The notes under the pieces: model-generated
Told to the model about the DNA's origin: nothing
The model's input: only the letters and a program-made list of their open reading frames with translations
Database searches by the model: none
Program-made: the position numbers and the translations under genes
Origin: an uncultured Pseudomonadota bacterium
GTDB taxonomy: Bacteria; Pseudomonadota; Alphaproteobacteria; Rs-D84
Direction of reading: 5' to 3'
Assembly (NCBI GenBank): GCA_902781465.1
Contig: CACZJK010000001.1
Location: 221,242 to 285,241 of the forward strand
Length of the DNA stretch: 64,000 nt
Shown: piece after piece, positions 28,118 through 50,689 of the stretch
How positions within the stretch are numbered: position 1 is the first letter of the stretch
How the letters are laid out: every line of letters begins with the position of its first letter

Positions 28118-30385
28118 TTAATGCAAAGGTTCCAATATTTTTATTTCATTAGTATTTGGATTTAAAATCCTTGGGGTGCCGGCATATCCCATAATCGCAT
28201 GATGTTGTGGAATTAAAAATTCAGGTAATGGGGACGCTTCGCCCATTGATACTTTTTCAAACAATTTCTTTTGAATAGAGGTTTTGTTAAGGAAATAACG
28301 TTCTTGGTCTGCTTCGATTGGACGATGATACCAACCCTGGTAAATAACGATTTGTTTTCCTTCTTTTAATTTCATAATATCCATTTCTGTATAAAGCGGT
28401 TCTTCTTTTGGAACTTCGACTTCTTTACCATCTTTGTTTTCCGTCTTCTTAGTCATTTTAAGTCCCATCATATTTGAAAATCTTTGCGCGGTTTCTGGAT
28501 CGTTTTGACGCAATACGATTTTAGCAGCAGTTGTAGATATAATAGTTGATGCGGCGTCTTCACCATATCTTTCGCGAATCTGGTGAATATCTTGGCCAAT
28601 AATTAAATAAGATACTTTGCATCCGCGCCCAAGGTCTGGCCCCTGGATAACAGCATCCAATTTTTGCATCTTTGGCATTTCGTCCAGTACGAATAATACA
28701 GGACACGGACCAACGCGTTGACCGTCAACCAGTGTATCTGGTGTGTGCGCCAATAAATAACTGGACATCAATTCAATGAATATTGCAGTAATAGGATTAA
28801 CCGCTTGGGCATCAACAAGGTTTACTGATAAATACACAGTAACAGGTTTAATTTTGCCGTCTTTTGGGTCTTTGATTCCGCGCAAATCGGCAAAGTGGAA
28901 ATCAGAGTGCGATGTTCTGTTGCGAACGGCGGCATTACGGAATATCGCTAAACCTTCCATCATAGTTGAAAGAATAGAGCCGCGTTCTTTATCCGGAGTG
29001 TTTGCCAATTGGGTCAATTCAGATACAGCGCGATTGGCGTATGCATAACGGCGTGCTTCTTCTACTGCTTTTAATAACAAATCTTTCATTGGGTCGGACA
29101 TCATAACCATCTGGTCGCCTTGGCGTCTGCGTTCTTCCATTTGTTCGGCAATTGCAACCTGTGATGAGGTCAGCCAATCAAGAATCATTGAAAAAGATGC
29201 TTCGTGACCACGCCATGCATCTGGAATATTTGCCCATGTTCCAACGTGGACATAGTTTGTAGTGTTCAATTCACCTTTTTGTAATAATGAATATGCAGCG
29301 TATGCATTTGGATCATTCATCATTGATAAATAATAATCGCCCAATACCGCCGCATCATCATTATTAAATGTTCCATTCATAATACGCGCATAAAAGTAAT
29401 CGTCGGCCTTGGCACGTTCAACCTTGGATACTATGAAATTCACCAAACCTGATAAACCGGCGCGACCAGTGTTTGCCCAGTGTGGGTCTGCGCTGCCAGA
29501 TTTGGCATCTGGAACCAAAACCTTACAAATCGCATCAATATACAAATCGCGTTGTTCAGGATTGTATGGAATATGATCTGGGGACAATGGGTTCCAAGAT
29601 GGATAATATATTCCGCGTTCTGGATCATCCTGACCCGCCCAGTTCATAATAAACACAGGTCCAATCGTTGCACGATATGCAGATGTTTTCTGTTTTAATT
29701 CTGGTTTAGGGTCATTGATAATCATTGATACAGTGTCGCAATCAAGAATTGTTGGAATAACAACGCCCGCAGTTTTACCGGTTCCTGGAGGTGCCACGCA
29801 TAATGCAGATAAACTTTCGTCAAACATCAATGCAGTTTGTTTGCCTTTATATTTAAAGTACCCAAGCACCATCATAAAGCCATTAAACAAACCTTCTTTA
29901 TTTTTATAGTTTGTTCCCATTTGTTTAATATCATCAGCAGTAGCTTTGCGTGAAGATTTTTCATCGTATTTATCTTTGCTGTGTGGATTAAATTCAGATT
30001 TGAAAGTTGAATCTGCCAAAAAATAATATCCCAATATTGGTAATAATGGTGTAATTGATGCAATATCAGGGTGTTGCATTGTGCGGACAATCCAATATGG
30101 AACCTCTGCAATTGCAGAAAGGCCGAAAGTCAAAAATAAATTTTTACAATATAGGTAAACCCAATGTTCACTGGCCGGGCCCCAACCATAACGCCATACA
30201 TGTTCAACCGCAAAAGACAATCCAAACAAAAGTGCGCATATCAACCAAATACCAACATCCCAGCGCATTTCCCAAAATTTTCGCGCCATTGGTGTCTGTT
30301 CGTGTTCTTTGTATGCGCTGGATTCAAAGATTTTTAATCCTTTGCCAGAACCACTTGCCGATAAAATGTTGAACTTTATTGCCAT
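28118..30385 (-). CDS. virD4: Type IV secretion system coupling protein VirD4/TraG family
   Basis: N-terminal TM helices. Walker A (PPGTGKTAGVVIPT). Walker B-like (VLFVLDEMPKM). TraG/VirD4 all-alpha and nucleotide-binding domains. Start placed at ATG 30385 (MAIKFN), behind a TGATATAAT -10 motif on the minus strand. The ORF track extends to 30427. Confidence 0.8.
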   Translation of the reverse strand: MAIKFNILSASGSGKGLKIFESSAYKEHEQTPMARKFWEMRWDVGIWLICALLFGLSFAVEHVWRYGWGPASEHWVYLYCKNLFLTFGLSAIAEVPYWIVRTMQHPDIASITPLLPILGYYFLADSTFKSEFNPHSKDKYDEKSSRKATADDIKQMGTNYKNKEGLFNGFMMVLGYFKYKGKQTALMFDESLSALCVAPPGTGKTAGVVIPTILDCDTVSMIINDPKPELKQKTSAYRATIGPVFIMNWAGQDDPERGIYYPSWNPLSPDHIPYNPEQRDLYIDAICKVLVPDAKSGSADPHWANTGRAGLSGLVNFIVSKVERAKADDYFYARIMNGTFNNDDAAVLGDYYLSMMNDPNAYAAYSLLQKGELNTTNYVHVGTWANIPDAWRGHEASFSMILDWLTSSQVAIAEQMEERRRQGDQMVMMSDPMKDLLLKAVEEARRYAYANRAVSELTQLANTPDKERGSILSTMMEGLAIFRNAAVRNRTSHSDFHFADLRGIKDPKDGKIKPVTVYLSVNLVDAQAVNPITAIFIELMSSYLLAHTPDTLVDGQRVGPCPVLFVLDEMPKMQKLDAVIQGPDLGRGCKVSYLIIGQDIHQIRERYGEDAASTIISTTAAKIVLRQNDPETAQRFSNMMGLKMTKKTENKDGKEVEVPKEEPLYTEMDIMKLKEGKQIVIYQGWYHRPIEADQERYFLNKTSIQKKLFEKVSMGEASPLPEFLIPQHHAIMGYAGTPRILNPNTNEIKILEPLH

Positions 30386-30392
30386 GATTGAT

Positions 30393-30401
30393 ATTATATC
30401 A
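30393..30401 (-). promoter_or_regulatory. Extended -10 (TGATATAAT) 7 nt upstream of the virD4 ATG: leaderless-type promoter
   Basis: Read on the minus strand the sequence is tttttATGATATAATatcaatcATGGCA. It matches the window's recurring TTTTGTGATATAAT motif with one mismatch, and there is no SD. Confidence 0.4.
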
Positions 30402-30438
30402 TAAAAAGAAACCTTTTTATACACCAAAGATTAAAAAA

Positions 30439-35987: not shown

Positions 35988-35997
35988 TTAGAATAAT

Positions 35998-36188
35998 TTT
36001 GTCAGCAAGAGTTTTGTTGATGGGGACTACAAACCTCTGAACACACAGCGTCCAAGATGACGTTAAATCTCCAACCAAGATGGTTGGAGGGTCGCGAATA
36101 TATTGAATAAGCGCGCAATTTCTGTGTGAATTGTTTGTAGCCTCCAACCGCCCTTGAATTATAAGTGCGGTTTTTTCATTGATGAAAA
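35998..36188 (+). ncRNA. Conserved structured leader RNA, copy B (candidate riboswitch/attenuator)
   Basis: TTTGTCAGCAAGAGTTTTGTTGATGGGG, then hairpin CGTCC..GACG, hairpin CTCCAACCA-AGA-TGGTTGGAG, hairpin GCGCG-AATATATTGAATAA-CGCGC, and CCTCCAACCGCC-loop-GTGCGGTTTTTTC (terminator-like), followed by TTTTCATTGATGAAAA and then GGGAGG and the ATG at 36202. Confidence 0.6.
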
Positions 36189-36201: not shown

Positions 36202-36954
36202 ATGAAACGAATCGCGCTTTTTATATTTGGTATATTTATATGTACGATTGTACACGCAGAAAATATAAACATTGATTGGAAGGTTGATGGTAATATATAT
36301 GATACCACAATTTGTACGCCAGGAGATTCAATAACTCCCCCACATGCACCGAGTAAATATGGATATCATTTTGAAAAATGGCAGGAAGTTTTCTATCGTG
36401 GAACCTTTAAAAATTTTTATGCAATTCCGGAAGATTCATCATTATACGTATCTGACATTAATGGAAATACAGTACCACAAAACAATGATTATTTAATTAT
36501 TGATGATGCATCAGATTATGCGACAAGTTATGCAGAAATTACATATAAAAACATAACTAATTATAAAAAGGGTGGTGTAACATTTACGCATTTTGATAAT
36601 TATACTGGAGAAACCACAACTCGAACCGTTTCGTTTGGCTTGCAAGGATGGTATTCTCCAACAAGAACTGTTAATGATCCCGTCGAATTTAATGGTCGAA
36701 TCCTTTTTTACGTGACCGCTGGTAGTAATGAAATATATATTGTTCCAACAGAAACATTAATTGTTAATGGTTCGGTTTCTGCCACTGATAAATCAACAAT
36801 GATTATAAACGGTTATGCGAATGTCGGTGCTATTGGAAAGATTTTATTTGGCAATCAATTTCTGTCTGGGCGTTGGCGTTTTTCCTATGATGGCACATGG
36901 GCTGATAACGGCAAGTTGGGATGGAAAGCAGATTATCAAATAACCCAAAAGTAA
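36202..36954 (+). CDS. Secreted protein P1 (cassette copy 1), hypothetical
   Basis: Signal peptide MKRIALFIFGIFICTIVHA. GGGAGG RBS. Clear paralog of the minus-strand ORF 49671-50414 (shared blocks PxxPTKYGYxFxxWxxVFYRGTF and GW...RWxxxYxGxW). The ORF track begins upstream at 36154. Confidence 0.6.
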   Translation: MKRIALFIFGIFICTIVHAENINIDWKVDGNIYDTTICTPGDSITPPHAPSKYGYHFEKWQEVFYRGTFKNFYAIPEDSSLYVSDINGNTVPQNNDYLIIDDASDYATSYAEITYKNITNYKKGGVTFTHFDNYTGETTTRTVSFGLQGWYSPTRTVNDPVEFNGRILFYVTAGSNEIYIVPTETLIVNGSVSATDKSTMIINGYANVGAIGKILFGNQFLSGRWRFSYDGTWADNGKLGWKADYQITQK

Positions 36955-36960
36955 TAAAAA

Positions 36961-37674
36961 ATGAAAAAAATATTTTATGTTTTTATATTATGCTTTTTTT
37001 CAGTGTCTGTAAAAGCCGACACAACTATATGCGATGCTGATATAAATGAATTTATAGCGATATATAAACCGTATAAATATACATGTGCACAGGGGGAATA
37101 TTTGCCTGCGAATACATTAGGGTGTGTTGTATGTCCAACAGGTTTCAATTGTCCTGGTGGAACATATGATTTTAATCCAGTTTATTTTCAGGGAATAATG
37201 TTTGATAATATAACAACAAGCATGATAAATAATATATGTGCAATCAATTTCCCAGATGAAATTATTGCAATATATAGACCAAACATACATACTTGTATGC
37301 CAGGCTATTTTTTGCCAGCAAATGTAGATGGTTGTACAATATGTCCCCAAAATAATAAATGCGTTGGTGGAACATATACTTTTAACGAAACAACATCACA
37401 AGGCATCGAGGCATGTTCTGGCAATACGCCGTATGCACCAACTGGTTCTGCGATTTGCTATGAACATATTTTGCATATTGGGGATGATATGGTTTATCTT
37501 AAAAGCACAAAACTTACCTCGCCGTCATTAAATGTTGGATGGGACGGTAATGTGTATTACGCAAATATGACGACTGTTCCAACCCCGATGAACAGTGCAA
37601 CCGAGCATGTTCTGAAAATAGAATACGACGGAACTATTTATTATGTTTGTGATGATACGACGTACAGAGAATAA
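36961..37674 (+). CDS. Secreted Cys-rich tandem-repeat protein P2 (cassette copy 1), hypothetical
   Basis: Signal peptide. Two tandem repeats of about 65 aa with the pattern IC..[5]..IAIYKP...TC..G.YLPAN..GC..CP....C.GGTY.FN. Conserved C-terminal domain (HILHIGDD.VYLKS.KLT.PSLN...YYVCDDTT). Paralog of 48961-49668 (minus). Confidence 0.6.
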   Translation: MKKIFYVFILCFFSVSVKADTTICDADINEFIAIYKPYKYTCAQGEYLPANTLGCVVCPTGFNCPGGTYDFNPVYFQGIMFDNITTSMINNICAINFPDEIIAIYRPNIHTCMPGYFLPANVDGCTICPQNNKCVGGTYTFNETTSQGIEACSGNTPYAPTGSAICYEHILHIGDDMVYLKSTKLTSPSLNVGWDGNVYYANMTTVPTPMNSATEHVLKIEYDGTIYYVCDDTTYRE

Positions 37675-37676
37675 AA

Positions 37677-37703
37677 AACCACCCGATTGGGTGGTGGTTT
37701 TTA
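37677..37703. terminator. Bidirectional terminator (aaccacccgattgggtggtggtttttat)
   Basis: Hairpin with flanking A-run and T-run between convergent P2 and dksA-like genes. Confidence 0.7.
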
Positions 37704-48694: not shown

Positions 48695-48770
48695 GGATGC
48701 ATAGCTCAGTTGGTAGAGCAACTGACTCTTAATCAGTGGGTCCAGGGTTCGAGTCCCTGTGCGTCCACCA
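48695..48770 (+). tRNA. tRNA-Lys (anticodon CUU)
   Basis: 76 nt cloverleaf with a 7-bp acceptor stem GGATGCA/TGCGTCC (one G-U pair), anticodon loop CUCUUAA, T-arm GGTTCGAGTCC, and encoded CCA. Confidence 0.9.
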
Positions 48771-48805
48771 GAAATAAAAACCACCGCAAGGTGGTGTTTT
48801 TATTT
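48752..48805 (+). repeat. Direct repeat copy 1: tRNA-Lys 3' end (from T-arm) plus terminator, 54 nt
   Basis: agtccctgtgcgtccaccagaaataaaaaccaccgcaaggtggtgtttttatt is repeated at 48912-48965 with a single A insertion. Confidence 0.8.
48781..48805 (+). terminator. Rho-independent terminator after tRNA-Lys (ccaccgcaaggtgg + T-run)
   Basis: GNRA-loop hairpin followed by TGTTTTTATTT. Confidence 0.75.
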
Positions 48806-48911
48806 ATGTCGCACATCAGGACGAAAACCCTTGTTCGACTATGAGTAAGCGAAAACGAGAGTATCGAAGTTTGAGTGCTAACGAATGCGGCGCAGGCATT
48901 TATGCCGAGCC

Positions 48912-48965
48912 AGTCCCTGTGCGTCCACCAGAAATAAAAAACCACCGCAAGGTGGTGTTTTTATT
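48912..48965 (+). repeat. Direct repeat copy 2 (att-like duplicate of tRNA-Lys 3' end plus terminator)
   Basis: 53/54 identity to 48752-48805, 107 bp downstream of copy 1. Abuts the stop codon of the P2 paralog. Confidence 0.8.
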
Positions 48966-49668
48966 CCCCGCATGTTGTATCATCGCACACGTAATATATC
49001 GTATTGTTGAATTCCAGTTTTAAATAGTGTTCGCTGTCGCGGTTCATATATGTTGGAATTGTTGTCATATTCGCATAAAAGATACCGTCGTTCATACCGA
49101 TATTTAACGATGGCGTGGTCAGTTTATCAGATTTCAAATAAACCACATCGTCCCCAATATGTAATATGTGTGGATAACAATATGCAGTTCCGCCTGGCGC
49201 ATATGTTCCGTTTGGGCATGGTTCGATACCTTGGTCGGTTGTTTCGTTAAATGTATATGTTCCACCAATACACTTATTACCAATGGTGCATGTTGAACAA
49301 GAAACGCTGTTCATTGGTAAATAATACCCCGCATTACAAAGAATTGTTTTTGGAGTCCACATCGCGTATAATTCAGCCGGAAAATTGGTCGAACAAACAT
49401 TATTTCCGCCAGACGTTATCTTTTGTGTCCAATCTATGCCTGATGATTTTTGCTCGTTAAAAGTCAGTTCTCCACCATTGCAAGAATACCCATTTGGGCA
49501 ATTCATACAATTTATAGAATTAGCCGGCAAAAATTGATTTGCATCACAATTTATGTTTTTTGGTGAAAAGAAAGCATACATTTCACCAATCCCAGAATCG
49601 CAAACCAGGTCATCTGCGAAAGATGGCATAACAAAAACGAAAAACAACAAAGGAAATATTTTTATCAT
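48961..49668 (-). CDS. Secreted Cys-rich tandem-repeat protein P2 (cassette copy 2)
   Basis: Signal peptide MIKIFPLLFFVFVMPSFA. Same two-repeat Cys pattern (C..[5]...LPAN...C..CP....C.GG...FN) and conserved C-terminal domain as 36961-37674. Confidence 0.6.
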   Translation of the reverse strand: MIKIFPLLFFVFVMPSFADDLVCDSGIGEMYAFFSPKNINCDANQFLPANSINCMNCPNGYSCNGGELTFNEQKSSGIDWTQKITSGGNNVCSTNFPAELYAMWTPKTILCNAGYYLPMNSVSCSTCTIGNKCIGGTYTFNETTDQGIEPCPNGTYAPGGTAYCYPHILHIGDDVVYLKSDKLTTPSLNIGMNDGIFYANMTTIPTYMNRDSEHYLKLEFNNTIYYVCDDTTCGE

Positions 49669-49670
49669 GA

Positions 49671-50414
49671 TTAATCCAATTGTTTTTCAGCAATCCAACC
49701 ACCACGATTATAATCGTCCCAATTTCCGTGATATCGCAAGAGCCATTTTCCAGAATAAGGGTAATTGTTTACGATGCGTGTATAGTATGTGCCATTGGAA
49801 TTTGTTTGTTTTGCGAGAACCAAAAAAAATTGTCCAGGCTGATATTTTTTGCCAAGAAAATTTACTACAGTATCTACATTCGTCGCCCATCTTGTACCGT
49901 ACGACCATATATTATGCATGTCTGTATATATGCTATTTTCAATGGTAATTCTTGGTGTGGTTTGGCTGATGCAATCACTATAAAGATTTTTATTAATATA
50001 AACATAACAAGAAGCTCCATAAGGGGTTGCCCAGTCAGAAAAAGATCGAGTTATATTTGTTATTCGTATTTCTATTTCTTCGTCTTTGTATTCTGGGACA
50101 TCGCTGGCGTTATTAACTATTATATAATCGTTTTCACGGGGAATATTTGAACCGTTTGTATCGCCCAGGTAGTCGCCGGTGTTGGTTGGTATGTTATTCC
50201 AGGTTGCAAATGTTCCGCGATAAAATACAGGGGCCCAGCCGTCAAAATCATATCCGTATTTTGTTGGTGTTGGTGGTAAATTTACCGCGCCCCCAACAGT
50301 ACAAGTTTGTGTGGCGTATGTTTCGTTATCTATAACAAATTTTAAATCGGTTGTTTCTGGCCATGCGTCAACGCAGATAAACATTGTGCATAAAATAAAG
50401 GCGATTCGTTTCAT
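49671..50414 (-). CDS. Secreted protein P1 (cassette copy 2)
   Basis: Signal peptide MKRIAFILCTMFICVDA. Paralog of 36202-36954. GGAGAG RBS. Stop lies 2 nt before the P2 start. The ORF track extends to 50426. Confidence 0.6.
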   Translation of the reverse strand: MKRIAFILCTMFICVDAWPETTDLKFVIDNETYATQTCTVGGAVNLPPTPTKYGYDFDGWAPVFYRGTFATWNNIPTNTGDYLGDTNGSNIPRENDYIIVNNASDVPEYKDEEIEIRITNITRSFSDWATPYGASCYVYINKNLYSDCISQTTPRITIENSIYTDMHNIWSYGTRWATNVDTVVNFLGKKYQPGQFFLVLAKQTNSNGTYYTRIVNNYPYSGKWLLRYHGNWDDYNRGGWIAEKQLD

Positions 50415-50427
50415 CTGGCTCTCCATC

Positions 50428-50622
50428 TTTGATTTGAATCAAAACACCGCCAGAAAATCGGGCGGTTGGAGGTTAGATACTATTATTGTGGAATAGTGCG
50501 TTTATTCAATATATTCACGACCCTCCAACCACATGTTGGAGACATCTTTTTCGTCATCGTCTTTTTTTGACGCCACAATATCGGGTATCTACCCCCGATC
50601 AGCAAAACTCTTGCTGACAATG
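50428..50622 (-). ncRNA. Conserved structured leader RNA, copy C (candidate riboswitch/attenuator), minus strand
   Basis: The reverse complement reads TTGTCAGCAAGAGTTTTGCTGATCGGGGG, then the hairpin GCGTC..GACG, the hairpin TCTCCAAC-ATGT-GGTTGGAGG, GTGAATATATTGAATAAACGCAC, and CCTCCAACCGCC-CGATTTTCTG-GCGGTGTTTTG, followed by TTTGATTCAAATCAAA and then GGAGAG and the ATG. Confidence 0.6.
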
Positions 50623-50689
50623 TTATTATAGCAATAAAAGCTTTCTTTTTAAAGTTGAAATTTCATGATAACTTTATATCATTTAATTT

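Follow-up and report, generated by a model that had tools for sequence, protein, structure and literature searches.

We report that two paralogous gene pairs in a 64,000-nucleotide (nt) stretch of DNA from an uncultured alphaproteobacterium of the Rs-D84 lineage (GenBank contig CACZJK010000001.1, positions 221,242 to 285,241; hereafter the window) each stand behind a conserved, structured leader RNA, and that the same RNA family also precedes unrelated genes for secreted proteins. The two genes of a pair, P1 and P2, belong to a new family that draws in part on known modules of surface proteins, and the leader is a new, apparently undescribed structured RNA whose regulatory type is familiar and whose regulon is unusual. 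The explanation that we favour, and regard as probable, is that P1 and P2 form an exported, paired protein family whose transcription is switched by the leader. The elements of the two cassettes, A and B, are listed below in the order of transcription, with positions in the window and protein lengths in amino acids (aa).

35989-36176, + strand: leader A (class I), with the -10 box TAGAAT at 35989-35994 and the RNA starting at about 36001; fold z-score -4.7
36069-36076, 36082-36090 and 36141-36149, + strand: putative switch elements A, A' and A2 of leader A; A pairs with A' to form helix P4
36146-36172, + strand: intrinsic terminator of leader A, with a U-tract to 36176
36202-36954, + strand: P1a, 250 aa; putative Sec-type signal peptide, InlB-type B-repeat (about residues 20-65) and type II beta-sandwich C-terminal domain
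36961-37674, + strand: P2a, 237 aa; putative signal peptide, two Cys-rich repeats and a conserved C-terminal domain (CTD) at about residues 150-237
37678-37695, unstranded: bidirectional terminator hairpin common to P2a and the convergent dksA
50441-50630, - strand: leader B (class I), with the -10 box TATAAT at 50630-50625 and helix P0 from 50618; fold z-score -5.5
about 50541-50534, 50530-50522 and 50472-50464, - strand: putative switch elements A, A' and A2 of leader B, followed by the terminator and U-tract to about 50441
49671-50414, - strand: P1b, 247 aa; putative signal peptide, B-repeat and type II beta-sandwich domain
48961-49668, - strand: P2b, 235 aa; putative signal peptide, two Cys-rich repeats and CTD
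48941-48956, - strand: terminator hairpin after P2b, within a duplicated tRNA-Lys 3' end and terminator

An earlier note on this DNA had described the two pairs as a secreted P1-P2 cassette present twice in inverted orientation, and its description of the genes was borne out. All four open reading frames (ORFs) were recovered intact at those positions, P1 precedes P2 in both copies on opposite strands, and the intergenic gaps are 6 and 2 nt. The regional identities given there were reproduced (42% over the N-terminal 105 aa of P1, 39-45% over the N-terminal part of P2 and 63% over the C-terminal 87 aa of P2), and the part of P1 beyond the first 105 aa is 31% identical between P1a and P1b. BLASTP aligned P1a with P1b at E 5e-29 (28% identity over the local alignment) and P2a with P2b at E 8e-84 (51% identity). 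With 28-52% of amino acids identical, the synonymous sites of the paralogues are saturated. No clear Shine-Dalgarno sequence was seen before P2a or P2b, and this absence together with the tight juxtaposition of P1 and P2 suggests that the two genes are translated in a coupled fashion. The preferred starts of P1 are ATG 36202, which has GGGAGG 7 nt upstream, and the matching ATG 50414; the longer ORFs from TTG 36154 and ATG 50426 were judged to have less likely starts. As the note had claimed, all four N-termini show a K/R-rich n-region, a hydrophobic core and an AxA-like site when read by eye, and they look like signal peptidase I (SPase I) signal peptides. A lipoprotein signal was considered and rejected, as Cys-14 is not conserved in the family and the -1 residue is atypical, which makes a SPase I site more likely. 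Terminator-like hairpins downstream of both P2 genes (37678-37695 and 48941-48956) and structured leaders upstream of both pairs were found as described. The leaders had been mentioned only in passing as structured, which is correct and incomplete, since they are copies of a conserved, covarying RNA family that also occurs before unrelated secreted-protein genes.

From the first hairpin to the terminator, leaders A and B are 71% identical in nucleotide sequence (fold z-scores -4.7 and -5.5), which is above the identity of the coding sequences behind them (54% for P1 and 65% for P2). From 5' to 3' the leader contains a nearly invariant -10 box, P0, the S1/S2 pseudoknot, c:c', P3, P4, P5, P6, A2 and the terminator with its U-tract. 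S1 is a short hairpin whose loop pairs with six nucleotides about 170 nt downstream (S2) to form an H-type pseudoknot, and P4 is formed by the invariant CUCCAACC and the invariant GGUUGGAG. The hypervariable helix c:c' joins the strand after S1 with the segment between CAAUUU and AAUUG, and closes a four-way junction around P3, P4 and P5.

Covariation was tested on 96 non-redundant class I leaders, using 500 shuffles and slid controls. Paired cells amounted to 93.3% vs 83.1% in the shuffles, and the covariation score was 0.371 vs 0.171 in the shuffles, none of which (0/500) reached the observed value; the slid controls gave 0.05-0.11. Changes on both sides were seen in 28 of the 47 pairs. Pseudoknot helix S2 is 98.6% paired, and five of its six pairs covary with up to four pair types. 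The c:c' helix has a mean of 7.97 base pairs (bp) vs 4.5 bp when partners are swapped between sequences, and the terminator stem is 92-98% paired before the U-tract. Covariation across these 96 copies rules out that the similarity of the leaders is a mere trace of recent duplication. Attenuation by a leader peptide was also rejected: the sole candidate, a UUG after GGAGG in leaders A and B, is AAG, CG or AUA in many members, and the variable helices rule out a conserved peptide. An invertible DNA switch operating through the 9-bp inverted repeats GGTTGGAGG and CCTCCAACC was dismissed because their spacing of about 50 bp is too short; the conservation of these repeats is explained by RNA-level covariation of the neighbouring helices.

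Three elements of 8-9 nt, A (CUCCAACC), A' (GGUUGGAGG) and A2 (CCUCCAACC), have the arrangement of a switch. A' is complementary to both A and A2, and the terminator stem begins with the last four bases of A2, so that from its sequence the set looks like an anti-antiterminator/antiterminator/terminator device for turning transcription on and off. The elements are invariant in the first 15 leaders, which were gathered from loci located by P2 protein homology and not by a DNA pattern; invariance within a class, which is expected if one strand has to fit two partners, proves nothing alone. A second class of leaders gives the comparison. Class II leaders are about 250 nt long and occur in 24 copies before P1 genes in other Candidatus Enterousia metagenome-assembled genomes (MAGs), with none in the window. 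Their elements, A UCCCUGAC, A' GUCGGGGAG and A2 CUCCCCGAC, differ in sequence from those of class I, and three-way complementarity is preserved among them, as is the way in which A2 runs into the terminator (GACCGUCA...). Some leaders are intermediate, for example with GGUUGGGGAG as A', and their A and A2 match it. The class II loci, about 250 nt upstream of P1, include L008, L023, L028, L033, L037, L041 and L048, among others; L049 and L038 resemble hybrids of the two classes.

When the segment from A' to A2 is folded computationally in isolation, it forms a 9-bp helix that encloses the hairpins P5 and P6. P6 (CAAUU/AAUUG) covaries, with AU changed to UA in 19 of the 96 leaders. P6 and c:c' are mutually exclusive, as the two together would leave no linker, and P6 is therefore assigned to the antiterminator conformer, while c:c', S2 and P4 are assigned to the terminator conformer. 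The 5' half of the leader can thus pair with the 3' module at three separate places.

A pattern made of the three invariant elements was found in at least 120 metagenome stretches and in 2 viral contigs of IMG/VR, and an nhmmer search gave 143 leader copies. In 120 of the 128 evaluable copies the leader is followed by an ORF on the same strand, whose start lies a median of 12.5 nt past the end of the model, and 88 of 113 leader-downstream ORFs have a signal-peptide-like N-terminus. These ORFs include P1-like and Cys-rich proteins, DUF285/leucine-rich repeat (LRR) proteins, a trypsin-like protease and small HTH_31 regulators. About 25 nt separate the leader terminator from the P1 start, without room for a separate promoter. 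In the window, a third class I leader precedes an ORF of another kind.

25644-25848, + strand: leader C (class I), with the -10 box TAAAAT at 25644-25649, A2 at 25813-25821 and then a terminator
25869-26258, + strand: ORF for a 129-aa Cys-rich protein with a putative signal peptide, behind leader C; terminator at about 26263-26285

By its leader, the 129-aa ORF is a predicted member of the same regulon as P1-P2, from a different protein family. It has no Pfam, PHROG or PADLOC match, and sits between a PQQ_2 beta-propeller lipoprotein gene and lpoB. Elsewhere, class I leaders truncated at the 5' end (starting from about model position 35-78) precede small genes for HTH_31/XRE-type regulators (L075:8614-8766, L065, L107, L072 and L163/L164); these are possible regulators tied to the same system.

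The earlier statement that neither protein has homology to characterised families was wrong in part. By profile comparison, P1 residues of about 20-65 are an InlB-type B-repeat. The Flg_new family (PF09479) scores 27.3 bits on P1b, marginally above the cut-off of 27, and 18.6 bits on P1a, below it; relatives score 35.6 bits (a close type II relative), 27.9 and 27.1 bits. A profile of 16 type II P1 proteins matches InlB chains in the PDB at E 5.9e-6 (2y5p) to 4e-4, and one homologue is named 'InlB B-repeat-containing protein' by NCBI. The AlphaFold2 model of P1b is all-beta, with a predicted local distance difference test score (pLDDT) of 83.7 and a predicted template modelling score (pTM) of 0.68; in the B-repeat region, where a member of the family would have a beta-grasp-like fold, it places strands at 21-28, 31-39 and 65-71 with pLDDT 68-85. 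Beyond the B-repeat, P1 occurs in at least two unrelated forms. The form of the window, type II, carries the motifs FYRGTF, DYIIVxDASD and SGxWxxxYxGxW, while the commoner type I has EYLESTGTQYIDTG near its start and FYYNAGTGxFIAGP at its end. P1 is, in short, a conserved InlB-type B-repeat joined to a variable beta-sandwich head. As in InlB (PF09479, 2y5p), the repeat adjoins other binding modules in an exported protein; unlike in InlB, a single repeat stands directly after the signal peptide, and the organism is a diderm alphaproteobacterium. When P1a was used as a lone query in the word-index search, it matched only itself, and relatives were found with a three-sequence profile. A sub-threshold PorU-N match of P1a in NCBIfam (21.7 vs 40 bits) was treated as noise.

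P2 contains two copies of the Cys-rich repeat C..G.YLPAN..C..CP....C.GGTY.FN...QG, followed by the conserved CTD of about 85 aa. The repeats, which are the variable part of P2, are DUF7631-like, and probably belong with that family, judging by the scores of longer homologues; their cysteines presumably form disulfide bonds. They share the CxxCP...C.GG motif with DUF7631 (PF24634), Ephrin_rec_like (PF07699) and furin/TNFR-like repeats. Against DUF7631, P2a and P2b score 16 and 24 bits, below the threshold of 27; the longer homologues P0002 and P0003 pass with 32 and 43.5 bits, and precomputed PF24634 matches exist on many longer members of the P2 family. In the AlphaFold2 model of P2a the repeats reach pLDDT 85-92 and the CTD stays below 50. 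P2 has no match among PDB sequences, and a fold search of P2a against the PDB gave nothing significant, the best matches (E about 3) being an Entamoeba lectin and R-spondin Cys-rich repeats. For the CTD no Pfam, PDB-sequence or fold match was obtained, its model (pLDDT <50) being too poor for the last of these. Large proteins of 996-5452 aa often finish at their extreme C-terminus with the last Cys repeat and the CTD, which come after DUF285/LRR arrays or B-repeats; the CTD is therefore taken to be a shared terminal module, of which P2 is the minimal carrier. Giant proteins of 2,700-6,200 aa (P0148, P0153, P0160, P0204, P0207, P0244 and P0287) have up to 27 matches to the P2-repeat profile, and several of them end in the CTD.

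The P1-P2 pair is a multi-copy feature of this lineage. A word-index search gave 239 matches for P2, and a P2 profile search of 1.84 billion representatives gave 1179 matches (representative clusters). When genomes were searched with the P2 profile, 52 loci came up, every one of them in a MAG that bears the label Candidatus Enterousia, uncultured proteobacterium or Alphaproteobacteria; the MAGs stem from rumen and from sheep, human and other guts, and the highest number in one MAG was at least 13 contigs. The fetched loci contain 77 P2-like ORFs, of which 11 are at contig ends. In the 66 evaluable cases, P1 is directly upstream of P2 in 47 (32 of type I and 15 of type II), with gaps mostly of -8 to +6 nt, and the others have different architectures, mainly fusions. 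One fusion, a 619-aa ORF downstream of the leader at about 2253 (- strand) in L110, combines a type I P1, Cys repeats, the CTD and a second type I P1 part, and hints that the separate P1 and P2 proteins work together. In this fusion the CTD is internal and not terminal.

The proteins are mosaic. Between P2b and P0076, identity is 20-45% over the N-terminal half and 90-95% over the C-terminal one, and P2a and P0023 have two windows of 20 aa that are 100% identical, with flanking windows at 15-60%. At both chromosomal sites used in the window, relatives carry the leader with different cargo: SPOR-tatA-leader and then a 278-aa B-repeat protein in L129, a leader and a 180-aa secreted protein adjoining dksA in L157, and a leader with a single 272-aa B-repeat protein adjoining the lipoprotein gene in L057. 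The earlier note had read the pairs as an old duplication that has been maintained. Paralogy stands, and a two-copy duplication is too narrow a description of a multi-copy mosaic family whose cargo differs by site. From the mosaicism and the different cargo at the same sites, we conclude that this idea is better replaced by that of two members of a family exchanged at fixed, leader-equipped chromosomal sites.

The following mechanism is proposed. Each cassette would be an independent transcription unit consisting of a promoter, a leader RNA of about 180 nt, P1, P2 and a terminator. By default the leader would fold into the terminator conformer, which comprises the 5' hairpin, the H-type pseudoknot, the four-way junction with CUCCAACC:GGUUGGAG and the intrinsic terminator, and transcription would stop before P1. 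In the alternative conformer, GGUUGGAGG would pair with CCUCCAACC, overlapping the 5' arm of the terminator, and the resulting three-way junction (outer helix, P5 and P6) would block termination and allow P1-P2 to be transcribed. A factor, which may be a small ligand, a protein or an RNA, would shift this balance and so co-regulate the secreted-protein genes that have the same leader. The predicted products are Sec-exported members of a lineage-specific, multi-copy, recombining family of Rs-D84/Candidatus Enterousia, and may reach the cell surface or the medium. Together, P1 and P2 could make up a binding complex, either in the cell envelope or secreted, that touches the surface of a host or partner with its variable parts; the B-repeat of P1 and the CTD of P2, both conserved, would be the natural candidates for the contact between the two proteins. 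A surface or host-interaction role is our best guess from the domain content.

The leader was compared with known regulatory RNAs. Riboswitches, T-box leaders and trp and pyr leaders are of the terminator/antiterminator/anti-antiterminator type. Like them, the P1-P2 leader has a structured 5' domain that is conserved, an intrinsic terminator immediately ahead of the first gene, and a segment with two alternative partners, one of which overlaps the terminator; a covarying structure, a terminator ahead of the ORF and a mutually exclusive antiterminator, by which riboswitches and attenuators are recognised, were all found. It differs from them in that the leader yielded no ligand, tRNA-binding signature, leader peptide or known protein site, and in that the genes it appears to control are secreted or surface genes, not metabolic or transport genes. 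Bacteroides UpxY/NusG-like proteins, RfaH/ops and LoaP bring about locus-specific antitermination of surface-structure operons. By analogy, the P1-P2 leader would resemble these systems as a long 5' leader, common to many surface operons, that gates elongation; unlike in those systems, no NusG paralogue or ops-like element was identified at the P1-P2 leaders, and the mechanism appears to be RNA refolding around an intrinsic terminator.

In Rfam 15 the class I leaders of the window matched nothing at gathering thresholds or at E <= 10, and no Rfam family matches the leader fold of pseudoknot and four-way junction. The closest family was reached through class II, whose A'..A2 modules align with the full-length 87-nt model of RF02221, sRNA-Xcc1, at 32.8, 35.3, 35.7 and 45.3 bits against a threshold of 53. 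The outer helix of that model corresponds to the class II A':A2 helix, and it too encloses two inner hairpins. sRNA-Xcc1 has been described as an 88-nt small RNA (sRNA) of Xanthomonas (PMC2996969); it, too, precedes a protein gene in the same orientation, namely symE in integron cassettes (bioRxiv 10.1101/2025.06.18.660453) and an ORF6N gene in APSE phages (PMC7313666). The Enterousia leaders differ in adding a 5' domain of about 90 nt that is complementary to three parts of the module, plus a terminator. We take the likeness of their sequences as a lead to common ancestry of the module, not as membership of the family.

Three other explanations were weighed. The leader might be an independent, multi-copy, trans-acting sRNA that ends at its own terminator, with its position next to secreted-protein genes being incidental or due to co-mobilisation. 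In favour of this, the leader carries a -10 box of its own and ends in a strong terminator, calculated stability greatly favours the terminator conformer, and class II cores match sRNA-Xcc1, which is described as trans-acting in the literature, over the full length at sub-threshold scores. Against this, 120 of the 128 evaluable copies precede a same-strand ORF at a median of 12.5 nt beyond the model, the roughly 25 nt from terminator to P1 leave no space for a separate promoter, the antiterminator element shares bases with the terminator arm and takes part in three-way covariation, which an sRNA would not need, and even sRNA-Xcc1 stands upstream of and co-oriented with a symE or ORF6N gene; we consider the sRNA explanation unlikely. 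To a similar degree we doubt that P1 and P2 are periplasmic or envelope housekeeping proteins without a role in cell contact, diversified by neutral drift in a reduced genome. Such a role would fit the evident features, which are Sec signal peptides with no known outer-membrane anchor or secretion-system motif detected and no fold match found. It does not sit well with B-repeats, LRR/DUF285 and Cys-rich repeats sharing the CTD and the leader, which are typical of surface proteins, with the many paralogues in a genome of <1 Mb, or with mosaicism and cargo replacement that resemble diversifying exchange rather than drift.

Very unlikely, in our judgement, is a mobile origin, in which P1-P2 would be left over from phage receptor-binding or tail-fibre modules, or from some other mobile element, and the leader would be a regulatory sequence of that element and not belong to the physiology of the host. 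Mosaic proteins, cargo swapped between relatives, the duplicated tRNA-Lys 3' end that adjoins cassette B, tail-fibre-like repeats in some leader-driven ORFs and the 2 IMG/VR contigs with the leader pattern would agree with it. The proteins have no PHROG match at E <= 0.01, however, and no structural hit in BFVD, where the best E was 0.07; the 2 viral contigs stand against at least 120 metagenome stretches with the pattern, and the neighbours of all three units in the window are housekeeping genes, among which no integrase or phage gene occurs. An anti-phage defence function was also considered and dropped, as P1 and P2 have no PADLOC match. A leader-switched, exported, paired P1-P2 family fits better than any of the three with the immediately adjacent ORFs on the same strand, the types of domain and the housekeeping surroundings.

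Several points weigh against that favoured explanation. The metagenome leader set was chosen by a pattern that fixes A, A' and A2, and as these elements are invariant in class I, the evidence for A':A2 pairing is the comparison between classes only. In calculations the terminator conformer is 12-19 kcal/mol more stable than the forced antiterminator, and it is favoured by 2.6-13 kcal/mol even before the 3' arm of the terminator exists; from this energy gap, termination would therefore be the default, and read-through would need a stabilising or sequestering factor. sRNA-Xcc1, the closest Rfam family, is published as a trans-acting sRNA. With regard to the proteins, the signal peptides were called by a sequence heuristic only, and the sequence evidence reaches as far as Sec export into the periplasm. 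The proposed P1:P2 complex is drawn from the gene coupling and one fusion protein, and the role given to the CTD, modelled at pLDDT <50, is a guess from its position.

Both cassettes lie in housekeeping surroundings, and a scaffold identical to the window is present in a rumen metagenome of ENA. Cassette A is neighboured by SPOR, tatA, dksA, trx and suf, and cassette B by tatD, thiF, tRNA-Lys, a lipoprotein gene, M23, tatBC and lolA. Beside cassette B, the last 19 nt or so of the tRNA-Lys(CTT) gene (48695-48770) and its terminator hairpin are directly repeated about 160 nt downstream (48752-48805 and 48911-48965). The second copy of this 3' end and terminator is the P2b terminator, and about 105 nt are left between the copies; the repeat looks like an att-type scar of integration at a tRNA gene. 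The window also encodes, in a very small genome, a VirD4/TraG-type coupling protein of type IV secretion (28118-30427, - strand), with the Pfam matches T4SS-DNA_transf, TrwB_AAD_bind and TraG-D_C in the matching scaffold. Guanine-cytosine (GC) skew is positive across most of the window and flattens or reverses past about 54 kb, with a cumulative peak at about 54-56 kb; strand bias may change at this point.

Enterousia is a member of the uncultured order Rs-D84, and its genomes, mostly <1 Mb, are without pathways for amino acids, nucleotides, fatty acids, the tricarboxylic acid (TCA) cycle and respiration (PMC12306168). These bacteria are widespread in human, ruminant, horse and chicken guts and, being short of most biosynthesis, must therefore live off partners; the P1-P2/leader locus bears on how they attach to or sense those partners. 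It points to a dedicated kit of modular exported proteins (B-repeat, Cys-rich, LRR and shared CTD) that recombine and are swapped at fixed sites. The one RNA device before the genes of this kit is a testable regulatory handle, with natural variation enough to guide mutagenesis. A bolder version, about which we are rather doubtful, is that the leader is a new class of RNA switch, in which the three-way-junction module, distantly related to sRNA-Xcc1, would recognise a particular small molecule or protein and thereby turn on a genome-wide regulon of variable proteins, secreted and at the surface, in a bacterium of the gut that is obligately dependent. If this is true, the sRNA-Xcc1 of integrons and phages would by extension be a cis-acting antiterminator module and not a trans-acting sRNA. 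More speculatively, the hypervariable c:c' and S2, which are different in every copy, could address the cassettes singly and so permit selective expression of surface variants. If the ligand or factor is found, it would reveal the signal by which this lineage deploys its surface proteins, and could change the reading of the mobile sRNA-Xcc1 family.

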